This document shows positions 7,173-34,029 of a stretch of DNA of 64,000 nt, piece by piece (the first letter of the stretch is position 1; every line of letters starts with the position of its first letter). Made by a program: the position numbers and the translations under genes. Source of the stretch: Mobula hypostoma (taxonomy: Eukaryota); assembly GCF_963921235.1 (NCBI RefSeq), contig NC_086097.1:122762001-122826000 (forward strand). Reading direction: 5' to 3'. The notes below the pieces were generated by a model. That model was given only the letters and a program-made list of their open reading frames with translations. It was not told where the DNA came from and ran no database searches.

Positions 7173-10100
7173 CACCTATCACCTTCCAGCTTCCCACTTC
7201 ATCCCCCCCGTCCACCCACTTCCCCCTCAGCATCTTCACCTATCACCTGCCAGCTTCTCACTTCCTCCTCCCCTCCTCCACCCACCCACCTCCCCCCACA
7301 GCATCTTCACCTATCACCTTCCAGCTTCCCACTTCATCCCCCCCGTCCACCCACCTCTCCCTCAGCATCTTCACCTATCACCTTCCAGCTTCTCGCTTCA
7401 TCCCCCCTCCTCCATCCACCCACCTCCCCCTCAGCATCTTCACCTATCACCTTCCAGCTTCCCACTTCATTCCCCCTCCTCCATCCACCCACCTCCCCCT
7501 CAGAATCTTCACCTATCACCTTCCAGCTTCCCACTTCATCCCCCCTCCTCCATCCACCCACCTCTCCCTCAGCATCTTCACCTATCACCTTCCAGCTTCC
7601 CACTTCACTCCCCCTCCTCCATCCACCCACCTCCCCCTCAGCATCTTCATCTAACACCTTCCAGCTTCTCACTTCATCCCCCCTCCTCCATCCACCCACC
7701 TCCCCCTCAGAATCTTCACCTATCACCTTCCAGCTTCCCACTTCATCCCCCCTCCTCCATCCACCCACCTCTCCCTCAGCATCTTCACCTATCACCTTCC
7801 AGCTTCCCACTTCACTCCCCCTCCTCCATCCACCCACCTCCCCCTCAGCATCTTCATCTAACACCTTCCAGCTTCTCACTTCATCCCCCCTCCTCCATCC
7901 ACCCACCTCCCCCTCAGAATCTTCACCTATCACCTTGCAGCTTCCCACTTCATCCCCCCTCCTCCATCCACCCACCTCCCCATCAGAATCTTCACCTATC
8001 ACCTTCCAGCTTCTCACTTCATTCCCCCTTCTCCATCCACCCACCTCCCCCTCAGCATCTTCACCTATCACCTTCCAGCTTCTCACTTCATCCCCCCTCC
8101 TCCACCCACCCACTTCCCCCTCAGCATCTTCACCTATCACCTTCCAGCTTCTCACTTCATCCCCCCTCCTCCACCCACCCACCTCCCCCTCAGAATCTTC
8201 ACCTATCACCTTCCAGCTTCTCACTTCATCCCCCCTCCTCCATCCACCCACCTCCCCCCTCAGCATCTTCACCTATCACCTTCCAGCTTCTCACTTCATC
8301 CCCCCCACCCACCTCCCCCTCAGCATCTTCACCTATCACCTTCCAGCTTCTCACTTCATCCCCCCCTCCTCCATCCACCCACCACCCCCCTCAGAATCTT
8401 CACCTATCACCTTCCAGCTTCTCACTTCATCCCCCCTCCTCCACCCACCCACCTCCCACCTCAGCATCTTCACCTATCACCTTCCAGCTTCTCACTTCAT
8501 TCCCCCTCCTCCACCTACCCACCTCCCCCCTCAGCATCTTCACCTATCACCTTCCAGCTTCTCACTTCATCCCCTCCTCCATCCACCCACCTCCCCCTCA
8601 GCATCTTCACCTATCACCTTCCAGCTTCCCACTTCATCCCCCCATCCACCTCCCCCTCAGCATCTTCACCTATCACCTTCCAGCTTCTCACTTCATCCCC
8701 CTCCTCCATCCACCCACCTCCCCCTCAGAATCTTCACCTATCACCTTCCAGCTTCTCACTTCATTCCCCCTTCTCCATCCACCCACCTCCCCCTCAGAAT
8801 CTTCACCTATCACCTTCCAGCTTCTCACTTCATCCCCCCCACCCACCTCCCCCTCAGCATCTTCACCTATCACCTTCCAGCTTCTCACTTCATCCCCCCT
8901 CCTCCATCCACCCACCTCCCCCCTTAGAATTTTCACCTATCACCTTCCAGCTTCTCACTTCATCCCCCCTCCTCGACCCACCCACCTCCCACCTCAGCAT
9001 CTTCACCTATCACCTTCCAGCTTCTCACTTCATCCCCCCTCCTCCATCCACCCACCTCCCTCCTCAGCATCTTCACCTATCACCTTCCAGCTTCTCACTT
9101 CATCCCCCCCCACCCACCTCCCCCTCAGAATCTTCACCTATCACCTTCCAGCTTCCCACTTCATCCCCCCTCCTCCATCCACCCACCTCTCCCTCAGCAT
9201 CTTCACCTATCACCTTCCAGCTTCCCACTTCACTCCCCCTCCTCCATCCACCCACCTCCCCCTCAGCATCTTCATCTAACACCTTCCAGCTTCTCACTTC
9301 ATCCCCCCTCCTCCATCCACCCACCTCCCCCTCAGAATCTTCACCTATCACCTTCCAGCTTCCCACTTCATCCCCCCTCCTCCATCCACCCACCTCTCCC
9401 TCAGCATCTTCACCTATCACCTTCCAGCTTCCCACTTCACTCCCCCTCCTCCATCCACCCACCTCCCCCTCAGCATCTTCATCTAACACCTTCCAGCTTC
9501 TCACTTCATCCCCCCTCCTCCATCCACCCACCTCCCCCTCAGAATCTTCACCTATCACCTTGCAGCTTCCCACTTCATCCCCCCTCCTCCATCCACCCAC
9601 CTCCCCATCAGAATCTTCACCTATCACCTTCCAGCTTCTCACTTCATTCCCCCTTCTCCATCCACCCACCTCCCCCTCAGCATCTTCACCTATCACCTTC
9701 CAGCTTCTCACTTCATCCCCCCTCCTCCACCCACCCACTTCCCCCTCAGCATCTTCACCTATCACCTTCCAGCTTCTCACTTCATCCCCCCTCCTCCACC
9801 CACCCACCTCCCCCTCAGAATCTTCACCTATCACCTTCCAGCTTCTCACTTCATCCCCCCTCCTCCATCCACCCACCTCCCCCCTCAGCATCTTCACCTA
9901 TCACCTTCCAGCTTCTCACTTCATCCCCCCCACCCACCTCCCCCTCAGCATCTTCACCTATCACCTTCCAGCTTCTCACTTCATCCCCCCCTCCTCCATC
10001 CACCCACCACCCCCCTCAGAATCTTCACCTATCACCTTCCAGCTTCTCACTTCATCCCCCCTCCTCCACCCACCCACCTCCCACCTCAGCATCTTCACCT

Positions 10101-10980
10101 ATCACCTTCCAGCTTCTCACTTCATTCCCCCTCCTCCACCTACCCACCTCCCCCCTCAGCATCTTCACCTATCACCTTCCAGCTTCTCACTTCATCCCCT
10201 CCTCCATCCACCCACCTCCCCCTCAGCATCTTCACCTATCACCTTCCAGCTTCCCACTTCATCCCCCCATCCACCTCCCCCTCAGCATCTTCACCTATCA
10301 CCTTCCAGCTTCTCACTTCATCCCCCTCCTCCATCCACCCACCTCCCCCTCAGAATCTTCACCTATCACCTTCCAGCTTCTCACTTCATTCCCCCTTCTC
10401 CATCCACCCACCTCCCCCTCAGAATCTTCACCTATCACCTTCCAGCTTCTCACTTCATCCCCCCCACCCACCTCCCCCTCAGCATCTTCACCTATCACCT
10501 TCCAGCTTCTCACTTCATCCCCCCTCCTCCATCCACCCACCTCCCCCCTTAGAATTTTCACCTATCACCTTCCAGCTTCTCACTTCATCCCCCCTCCTAC
10601 ACCCACCCACCACCCACCTCAGCATCTTCACCTATCACCTTCCAGCTTCTCACTTCATCCCCCCTCCTCCATCCACCCACCTCCCTCCTCAGCATCTTCA
10701 CCTATCACCTTCCAGCTTCTCACTTCATCCCCCCCACCCACCTCCCCCTCAGCATCTTCACCTATCACCTTCCAGCTTCTCACTTCATCCCTCCCTCCTC
10801 CATCCACCCACCTCCCCCCTCAGAATCTTCACCTATCACCTTCCAGCTTCTCACTTCATCCCCCCTCCTCCACCCACCCACCTCCCCCTCAGCATCTTCA
10901 CCTATCACCTTCCAGCTTCTCACTTCATCCCCCCCCCCACCCACCTCCCCCTCAGCATCACGTATCACCTGCCAGCTTGC
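7173..10980 (+). repeat. C-rich minisatellite, 69-bp unit (some ~60-bp variants), roughly 55 copies
   Basis: Unit cagcatcttcacctatcaccttccagcttctcacttcatcccccctcctccatccacccacctccccct; starts at 7501 and 7570 give period 69; 23-aa periodicity in the ORF track. Confidence 0.97.
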
Positions 10981-11199
10981 ACTCCATCCCCTCTCCCCAT
11001 CTTTTTTTCCTGGCTTCTTCCTCCTTCCTTTACTGTCCTTGTGAAGGGTCTTGGCTCAAAGCTTCAACTGTTTTATTCCTCTCCATAGCTGCTGCCTGAC
11101 CTTCTGAGCTCCTGCAGCTTTTTATGTATGTTGCCTTGACCTCTACTTCCTTTTAACCAGACCAGAGCCCTGTTTTTCACAGCCCACATTCCTCTTTTT

Positions 11200-29829: not shown

Positions 29830-30545
29830 TTTCTCAGCTCTTTCAGTTCTTATTTTTCTTCGTAAATTTTCCAGATCGGTTCTGGATTAAGATATTATGC
29901 TCAAACAACATATTGATATGGGTATGGCCAAAGTGTTTATTGCTTTTGTTATATTTTTACTATTGAACTCTGGCAGATTTTCTTAAGCCTTGAAATAAAT
30001 CCTGTTGGAAGATTTCCCTTTACCACACTATGATCTATTTTGTTTGCTTACTGATATCCCCGATACTGATATGTTTGATATTCATCCATCAGTGGTACTG
30101 TATCCTGCTGCTCTGTTTTATATTCCACTAGCTTTATTGCACCTTTCTTTATGTTTAATGTTAGGCACTTATCAAGTCCAAAGTTCATGTTTTTATCTTT
30201 AGAAAATAGTTCTACTATTTGAATGAATTGTTTTAGCTTTACTGATGAAGGAGCATATAATTTCAAATTGTCCATGTACAGAAGCTGTGTCAAGGCATAA
30301 TTAATTTGGCTTTCTCTGTCTGATACCCTTTTTTCATCCGGTTCAGTAAATTAGAGAGTGGGTTTAAAGCTGGACAAATCCATAGTGGGATTAGAGAGTT
30401 GCCATGGAAAATGCCTCGGTTTATTTTGACAACAGTGGCTGTTCTTTTTTGGTTGTTAATAGATAGGGAGATGGTAGTACGTCAATACTTCACCAGATGT
30501 TGTAGGACTTTCACAAGTATTGTGTGTAGTTTATATAGATGTAAG
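29830..30545 (-). mobile_element. R4/Dong-clade non-LTR retrotransposon RT fragment
   Basis: Antisense RGIFHGNSLIPLWICPALNPLS, QLLYMDNLKLYA...MNFGLDKC and KAINTLAIP match R4/Dong motifs (QGDSLSPLWF.LALNPL, LYMDDLKL, FGLDKC). Confidence 0.75.
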
Positions 30546-30549
30546 CATT

Positions 30550-31215
30550 CTGCAGGTTGCTCAGGAGTGGAAAATGGATGTGGACTTGGAAAAAAAGCTT
30601 GTGTTTCCCCCAGACATTCTGGCTACAACACTCCGGCCAGACATGGTCCTGTGGTCCACAACAGCCAAGCTGGCATATGTTGTGGAATTGACAGTACCAT
30701 GGGAAGATGGTGTCGAAGAAGCTTATGAGAGGAAAAAGACCAAGTACTCTGAATTGGCAACTGAAGCTGCCCAGAATGGCTGGAAGACCAAGATTTTCCC
30801 TGTAGAAGTGGATGCAGGCGATTCCTTGCTACATCTACGACCAGTCTATTGAAGAAGATGGGGGTGAGGGGTCACTCCCTCCAACAAGCAATCAAGTCCT
30901 TGTCAAACACAGCAGAAGAAAGCAGCAATTGGATTTGGATTAAAAGGGAAGACAACAACTGGGCTGCAAGATGAAGACAGGAGGGTATGGATCTGACCGG
31001 GGTGTATCTGTGGCACCAGGTAGCACTGTTGAGCCCTCTGGAGACGTCGTGGGCTTATCAATAAAACATCAAAGGAGGAGGGTGCCCACCTGATGACCCT
31101 GATGACGTACCTACTCTCCCTCCTTGTCACCACTCCAAGCCCACTGCCAACATCGACAGTGCCGACTTACCATAGGGATTGAAACATCAAGTCCTAGTAG
31201 CTCTGCTACTTAAGA
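30550..31215 (+). mobile_element. HERO-clade non-LTR retrotransposon 3' end (restriction-like endonuclease and 3' UTR)
   Basis: LRPDMVLWS...VELTVPWE...AYERKKTKY...GW...PVEV; after a frameshift AEESSNWIWIKR. Confidence 0.8.
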
Positions 31216-33449: not shown

Positions 33450-33932
33450 ACCTGCTTATTAATGCAAATTTTTAATCAGCCAATGCACAAAAGCATGAAG
33501 ACATGCTCAAGAGGTTCAGACCAAACGTCAGAATGGGGAAGAAAAGTGATCCAATTGACTTTGATGGTGGAATGATCATTGGTACCAGAAGGGGTGGTCT
33601 GTATATCTCTGAAACTCCTGATCTCCTGGAATTTTCATGTACAACAGTGTCTAGAGTTTATGGAGAATGATATGAAATAAAAAGTATCCATTGTGTGGCA
33701 GTTCCATGGGTGAAAATGTCTTGTCAGAGGAGAATAGCCCAGACTGGTTCAAGTCGACAGGATGGTGACAGTAACTCAAATAACTATGCATTACAACAGT
33801 GGTGTGCAGAAGAGCATTTCTGAATGCACAACATGTTGAACCTTCAGGTGGATGGGCTACGGCAGCAGAAGACCACGAACATACACTCAGTGGCCACTTT
33901 ATTGGGTACCAATTAAAGTGGCAACTAAGTGT
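33450..33932 (+). mobile_element. Tc1-like remnant ending in paired TIRs
   Basis: Homologous to 13507-14010 (MGKKSDPIDFDGGMIIG); imperfect palindrome at 33883-33932. Confidence 0.7.
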
Positions 33933-34029
33933 TGGTCATTGATTCTGATTCTGAATCAGGAACAGAACGTACCATAAATGACTCCTTCTCAATAAGATTA
34001 TGTAACTTGTGATCGCTCTTGACTCCCGT

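Follow-up and report, generated by a model that had tools for sequence, protein, structure and literature searches.

A conserved hammerhead-type fold with an opened core in the 3' UTRs of HERO retrotransposons

The 3' UTRs of HERO retrotransposons appear to carry a real and widely conserved variant of the hammerhead ribozyme, one that is apparently undescribed. Comparison of related elements leaves us nearly certain that the fold is conserved, and it suggests with good probability that the fold self-cleaves after a NUH triplet. The predicted wiring breaks an assumed rule, namely that CUGAnGA must lead directly into stem II. It would also represent a non-circularly permuted ribozyme that resides in animal genomes in hundreds of copies and is tied to an autonomous RLE retrotransposon. 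We consider it likely that the fold cuts RNA because its core is conserved and because the longest copies of the element run past their own start into their tail.

The HERO copy and its motif pieces

The window, a stretch of 64,000 nucleotides from Mobula hypostoma (NC_086097.1, positions 122,762,001 to 122,826,000), contains a retrotransposon copy of ~670 nt, and a first search of the 3.48-Gb genome returned 1597 candidates. The copy and the pieces in its 3' UTR, all on the + strand, are as follows.

About 30538 to 31209, +: 5'-truncated copy of a HERO-clade RLE non-LTR retrotransposon, with no target-site duplication
30538 to 30974, +: C-terminal ORF remnant with the restriction-like endonuclease motif RPD..VELTVPWE..K and a frameshift near 30820
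30972 to 30974, +: stop codon TGA ending the ORF remnant
31043 to 31048, +: GACGTC, stem III 5' strand with the GUC triplet; cut predicted after C31048
31049 to 31054, +: GTGGGC, stem I strand on the 3' side of the cut
31055 to 31060, +: TTATCA, stem II strand of the preliminary description
31063 to 31070, +: AAAACATC, GAAA core and stem III 3' strand; family majority GAAACGUC
31084 to 31089, +: GCCCAC, stem I partner strand
31090 to 31096, +: CTGATGA, the CUGAUGA core
31100 to 31105, +: TGATGA, second stem II strand of the preliminary description
31171 to 31188, +: CATAGGGATTGAAACATC, region of an alternative near-type-III fold in the preliminary description
31174 to 31195, +: predicted 3'-terminal hairpin with a second GAAAC
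31196 to 31209, +: fixed 3' end with a short stutter; ..CTCTACT in the family, joined straight to the 5' UTR in long copies

All of the pieces named in the preliminary description were present where it had placed them, and they lie, as it had supposed, in a HERO 3' UTR, being 3' of the stop codon at 30972 to 30974 in a copy of an RLE retrotransposon. This copy is a decayed, 5'-truncated product; the whole ORF is contained in another copy (L142). The family and its relatives share the HERO-type layout of a single ORF with an RT, a zinc knuckle, and a C-terminal RLE, and both CCHC and PD..E.K motifs were seen in the protein alignment (A1). RT-bearing protein relatives came from named fishes, lamprey, amphioxus, and bivalves. 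One of these (P0003, with RVT_1 present) is 75% identical to the window's family over 288 amino acids, and about 64 of 97 residues of its RT match HERO-1_BF, as counted by eye in a passage from the supplement of PMC5678591. The family was filed provisionally as HERO on the strength of this match. The endonuclease piece had no Pfam match, and no relatives were found in a search of viral contigs.

Three other features of the window are recorded here. Just upstream of the HERO copy, on the - strand at 30048 to 30350, is a fragment of another RT with an LLYMDNLK motif, which we take to be R4-like. A 69-bp tandem array occupies 7173 to 11001 (56.7 copies, 90% matches), and a near-perfect inverted repeat at 33879 to 33936 gave a weak match to a miRNA model, below the gathering score.

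The window's copy lacks an intact GAAA, and the preliminary description had inferred that this block decayed from GAAACGUC. That inference was borne out: GAAACGUC is the majority at 31063 to 31070 among 30 aligned copies, which were chosen by their likeness to the window and include the window's own copy. Position 31063 is G in 22 of these 30 copies and position 31068 is G in 23, and of the first 100 copies listed among 802 pattern matches, 91 have GAAA. The window's copy has changed G12 to A and carries a second G-to-A change at 15.3 that creates a mismatch in stem III. It also has two changes in helix A and, at 31075, an A-to-G change in the k-turn. Because of these changes, the window's own copy is predicted to be inactive. 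A structure descriptor of the fold was passed by 24 of 53 inspected copies from the same genome, with the window's copy counted among the 53. An Rfam search at E<=10 returned no ribozyme match in the window's motif, and plain single-strand folding, a method that is uninformative for knots, did not recover the knot (z -0.29).

Architecture and conservation of the fold

From 5' to 3', the strands of the predicted fold run in the order helix A, hairpin B, helix C, helix P, stem III, NUH, and stem I, followed by the 3' strand of helix C, GAAA, stem III, helix P, stem I, CUGAnGA, and the 3' strand of helix A. The strands that complete the motif in the window are listed below.

30997 to 31000, +: helix A 5' strand, partner 31097 to 31100; family majority GGGG, CCGG in the window and thus broken
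31001 to 31027, +: helix B hairpin, an arm of the predicted four-way junction; inner stem decayed in the window
31028 to 31032, +: helix C 5' strand GUUGA, assigned as the true stem II strand; G31028 is hammerhead position 10.1
31034 to 31039, +: helix P 5' strand, partner 31077 to 31082
31040 to 31042, +: GGA strand of the predicted k-turn that links helix P to stem III
31058 to 31062, +: helix C 3' strand, UCAAC in most copies; 31062 (U in the window) corresponds to position 11.1
31071 to 31082, +: k-turn 3-nt bulge and GA, then helix P 3' strand; A-to-G change at 31075 in the window
31084 to 31096, +: stem I partner strand and CUGAUGA core
31097 to 31100, +: helix A 3' strand, immediately 3' of A9

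The reversed strand order proposed in the preliminary description, with the cleavage site first, GAAA second, and CUGAnGA third, was found across relatives. The pseudoknotted character that it had suspected also recurs there, in the form of helix P and the crossing stems. Its stem II did not survive the comparison. The UUAUCA/UGAUGA pairing was formed in 47.5% of alignment cells, a value reached by 202 of 500 shuffles, and in 34 of 35 families the base that follows CUGAnGA does not pair with the one that precedes GAAA. The covariation indicates that the true stem II is GUUGA/UCAAC (helix C), with G10.1 located upstream. The alternative near-type-III fold fared no better: at GAAACAUC, all 30 copies have A instead of G at position 31181. 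GAAACAUC falls inside the predicted terminal hairpin, and relatives that share the terminal motif carry UAAC or CAAC at this point.

We assessed conservation on metagenome contigs, at the best 80 among 200 confirmed related loci, which are 31 to 74% identical to the C-terminal protein of the family. The structure descriptor scored >=27, a threshold set after inspection of the data, in 46 of the 80 loci (35 distinct) and in 44 of the 64 loci with at least 200 nt of UTR. Of 1750 shuffles in which the core letters were held in place, 6 reached the same score, and it was reached by none of the 64 reverse complements and none of the 57 ORF stretches. Among the 20 long-UTR loci that fell below threshold, roughly half look, by eye, decayed, partly deleted, or truncated where the contig stops, and the others have no clear motif. 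The loci that bear the fold are scattered across a deep protein tree.

Pairing was then scored in structure-blind MAFFT alignments, whose windows were trimmed at descriptor-defined ends and whose rows are kin and not independent events. Stems I and III, as proposed in the preliminary description, were 96.8% paired over 36 rows, and none of 500 shuffles scored as high. All seven helices together were 93.8% paired in a 10-row group, where 21 of 34 pairs were compensated, and helices A, B, and C were 94.1% paired in a 14-row group, where 14 of 16 were; here too, none of 500 shuffles matched either value. The slid controls for these alignments were 27 to 54% paired. Helix P by itself was 88% paired, with 3 of 6 pairs compensated. 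The core positions C3 to A9 (CUGAnGA), G12 to A14, and A15.1 to U16.1, which the descriptor required in the 46 of 80 loci, are near- or fully invariant in MAFFT alignment A2. The preliminary description was right about the hammerhead core.

In the predicted fold, the link between A9 and 10.1 is open, and a four-way junction seals the opening. Helices A, B, and C abut without a gap in all 35 families, in a search that permitted gaps of <=2 at a penalty. Pseudoknot helix P is predicted to be joined to stem III by a k-turn, a motif in which two helices are separated by a 3-nt bulge and the tandem G.A/A.G pairs that follow it. The k-turn pattern occurs in 23 of 35 families, compared to 233 of 7000 shuffles, and no k-turn pattern of any kind is present in 9 of the 35. 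Six divergent families (L107, L110, L115, L116, L117, and L123) keep the four-way junction and have a bulge or a near-continuous helix in place of the k-turn. The tandem G.A pairs, together with helices A, B, and C in a perfect four-way junction, would preserve the stacking of G12.A9 on G10.1-C11.1. Helix P and the k-turn would fold stem III back, and a three-way junction of helices I, C, and P would take the place of the contact between loop I and loop II. G.A stacking on helix C in the four-way junction may leave the core geometry intact.

Several features that the descriptor did not impose resemble those of active hammerheads. Position 17 is never G (35/35 families), although the descriptor allowed it, and 34 of the 35 families have G-C at 16.2-15.2. 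Helix C begins with 10.1-11.1, a pair that is G-C in 32 and G-U in 3 of the 35; G10.1-C11.1 is reached via the four-way junction and not covalently from A9. On the opposing side, 8 of the 35 families have a GUU triplet, which is associated with slow cleavage. At two loci (L100 and L114) the C3-G8 tertiary pair has become U3-A8, in positions where the descriptor permitted either letter per site, and natural hammerheads show this same covariation (PMC3088659). The core, H17, G10.1-C11.1, and U3-A8 persist on deep branches and point to constraints of catalysis.

Element ends and models of replication

We compared the position of the predicted cut with the ends of genomic copies. The 3' end was inspected in 53 copies and is ..CTCTACT in every one, at a distance of 159 nt beyond the predicted cut, and no copy was found that ends at the cut. 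Contrary to the preliminary suggestion, the cut (31048) does not define the priming end. The 3'-terminal hairpin is likely an RT recognition signal and not a ribozyme strand. Copies that start at the cut were likewise absent (0 of 737 copies that have the 22-mer after the cut); these start and end tests detect about one-third of random junctions, so that the bound on pile-ups is roughly 1%, not zero. The cut site shows no excess of scars or indels: in the first 100 listed of 802 matches there were 5 one-base deletions in 14 nt, 2 of them near the cut, and no insertions, compared to 4 indels in 20 nt in the first 100 listed of 648 control matches.

The long copies have a different structure at their 5' side. 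Thirteen of 30 N-terminal loci continue straight into the element's own tail, as do 24 of 25 copies that reach the start of the 5' UTR, a set that overlaps the 30 loci. The remaining copy (L194) begins at the joint. In 23 of the 24 run-on copies, the tail-to-start joint has no insertion or deletion. Run-on lengths range from 52 to >1500 nt, with a median of about 200 nt. Fourteen of the 24 pass the cut, 10 stop short of it, and none stops at it, the nearest stops being at 151 and 190 nt; 11 are long enough to contain the whole upstream ribozyme. With a loose pattern, the stutter was found at 0 of 24 internal joints and at 20 of 53 target-side 3' ends (Fisher p = 1.7e-4), and 5' UTR run-on occurred at none of those 53 ends. 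Clean run-ons and an unscarred cut site indicate an RNA template that passed through the tail-to-start joint without a break and was intact where the cut is predicted.

L141 and L142 are single insertions of 1.1 units, each with two whole ribozymes, and neither of these inspected unit-spaced pairs is a long array. Of 45 metagenome loci that extend >=500 nt downstream, 9 continue into a HERO N-terminus, for which assembly cycles are a possible cause. Ordinary short 5'-truncated copies have a median length of 715 nt in a set pre-selected for >=300 nt. A search of sequencing runs with a query that barely spans the joint found no RNA run among the matches listed.

Some copies differ from these in their flanks. 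Most copies lack a target-site duplication: words of >=7 nt were shared in 6 of 52 copies, compared to 199 of 2652 controls; L011 and L054 have apparent target duplications of about 25 to 30 nt. Inverted element pieces adjoin the 5' side of L193, L179, L145, L152, and L154, and the inverted piece at L193 (1.26 kb upstream) extends to the element 3' end, which places a tail at both ends. L143 (G000:C1:106725300-106728500) is a local tandem duplication of 515 nt, 98% identical, that comprises tail and flank and is not a head-to-tail unit.

We propose a model to which we assign an even chance, in which the hammerhead-type fold cuts unit-length RNA from longer transcripts, and this RNA becomes a circle that is copied from a fixed internal point. 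A copy of more than one unit would carry two ribozymes, and read-through RNA would be cut at both to leave 5'-OH and 2',3'-cyclic-phosphate ends. The refolded ribozyme may hold the cut ends together, to be joined by the ribozyme itself or by a host RtcB-type ligase; ribozyme cutting and RtcB circularization have a precedent in retrozymes (PMC7229834). TPRT would then prime at ..CUCUACU, 159 nt past the cut, cross the sealed cut, and copy the ORF, and a second lap by the RT would regenerate copies with two ribozymes. A circle made from cut-to-cut monomers would explain the continuous joint, the intact cut site, and the conserved catalytic core together, and we judge the case for a circular template as such to be equally balanced. 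Slightly short of that stands the full proposal, in which HERO is an autonomous LINE-type element that replicates via a ribozyme-made circle: the split-core hammerhead would cut and reseal, the RT-RLE would prime internally and roll round, and neither a fixed 5' end nor a poly(A) tail would be needed. Several points weigh against a circle. Run-on lengths resemble those of short truncated copies, as would also be expected if the RT had started anew by jumping templates, L194 begins at the joint, and the seamless joints and missing scars are explained equally well by an uncut linear concatemer.

An uncut concatemer is at the center of an explanation that we consider unlikely, though worth serious attention. 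Here the ribozyme is active, yet slow or switched, and removes a leader in aid of translation or turnover; the templates are uncut head-to-tail transcripts of tandem masters that are internally primed. The seamless joints, the 14 of 24 run-ons past the cut, and the lack of scars need only uncut RNA. Roles of ribozymes in translation have been reported (PMC13725137), a tRNA-like A/B box lies ahead of the motif in one clade, as in a leader, and a downstream strand could, by eye, pair with the helix P 3' strand as a putative off-switch. Against this explanation, efficient cutting would leave templates that start at the cut, and none was found; of the two unit-spaced pairs that were opened, neither revealed a long array.

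The A-box and B-box motifs just mentioned occur in L093, L095, and L111, 50 to 112 nt past the ORF match, between the stop and the ribozyme. We take them to be tRNA-like Pol III promoter motifs. The B-box pattern occurred 0 times in 62 kb of ORF, ARAGORN detected no tRNA in 27 loci, and the boxes of this clade could be a promoter for the next unit. The alternative pairing joins the helix P 3' strand (31073 to 31083) and a pyrimidine strand at about 31111 to 31122, and it was seen by eye in L065 and L096 as well.

It is rather improbable that the RNA is linear, either from the 5' UTR start to ..CUCUACU or as a nicked circle running from cut to cut, and that head-to-tail copies arise from precise end-to-end jumps of the RT. 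R2-type RTs do jump between templates, the run-on lengths are like those of fresh truncated insertions, and L194 begins at the joint. R2 jumps add non-templated letters, however, and this explanation requires ~96% of jumps to add none (23 of 24 joints are clean) and to leave no scar at the cut.

To a very similar degree, we doubt that the fold derives from a hammerhead that no longer cuts and now acts as a scaffold that is bound by the HERO RT. In favor of this, the site is intact in all genomic copies, and the A9-10.1 link is broken, contrary to the assumption made in PMC10085705. The core letters, the exclusion of G at position 17, G10.1-C11.1, and the U3-A8 covariation nevertheless persist across deep branches. 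We give almost no credence to the folds of the preliminary description (a UUAUCA/UGAUGA stem II or the near-type-III fold at 31171 to 31188, with the cut as the 3' priming end), whose letters are able to pair in the window's family alone, whose stem II lacks covariation, and whose cut lies 159 nt short of the 3' ends.

Comparison with known systems

The closest relatives of the HERO motif are the type-SGC hammerheads (HRIMA-1 and variants), which have the S-G-C order and were validated in vitro (Eckert et al. 2023, PMC10085705). The HERO motif shares with type SGC the block order of site, GAAA, and CUGAnGA, three mutually crossing stems, a short connection between stems I and II, and a fourth helix, which we take to be equivalent and in which the strand 5' of stem I takes part. 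Helix P may thus be the counterpart of the type-SGC 'I' interaction helix. In type SGC, a stem II strand directly follows A9 and block C is assumed to be unbreakable (PMC10085705), whereas the HERO motif has its 10.1 strand on the 5' side, a four-way junction with two extra helices, and a k-turn. The fold would thus correspond to a type SGC in which the connection from A9 to G10.1 has been broken and closed again by two additional helices. It differs from hammerhead types I to III in its S-G-C order, which is a knotted as opposed to an unknotted circular order.

As described in PMC10085705, SGC motifs come almost all from metatranscriptomes and none from the genome of a known organism, and a term search of its supplement for 'HERO', 'kink', and 'four-way' gave 0 matches. 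Neither this wiring nor a HERO ribozyme was described in the passages retrieved from the open literature searched, including PMC13725137, PMC10162972, PMC544870, and PMC7650587; subscription papers and Repbase lay outside this search.

Retrozymes resemble HERO in that ribozyme-flanked repeats give rise to cut-to-cut monomers, which become circles, in vitro chiefly through the action of RtcB (Cervera and de la Pena 2020, PMC7229834). They are non-autonomous, with repeats of about 170 to 400 nt and type I or III hammerheads (PMC7229834). In contrast, HERO is an autonomous RT-RLE element of 3.8 kb, for which circles are so far putative. The 1.1-unit copies L141 and L142 do present a retrozyme-like unit flanked by two ribozymes.

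Penelope-like elements carry a hammerhead of the small type I kind in their terminal repeat and encode a GIY-YIG endonuclease. HERO recalls their architecture in that the tail is repeated at the front and in its tandem or inverted 5' pieces, and differs from them in that their endonuclease is GIY-YIG and their RT is of another class. In R2 and other LINEs, a 5' HDV-like ribozyme frees the element from the host transcript and defines the start of full-length copies. HERO and R2 are both RLE-type LINEs with self-cleaving RNA, cleavage being predicted in HERO. Unlike R2, HERO has no copy that starts at the cut and carries a hammerhead behind its ORF. If the circle model is true, TPRT can begin inside a circular RNA, which would change the standard picture of LINEs and link them to retrozymes and Penelope elements.
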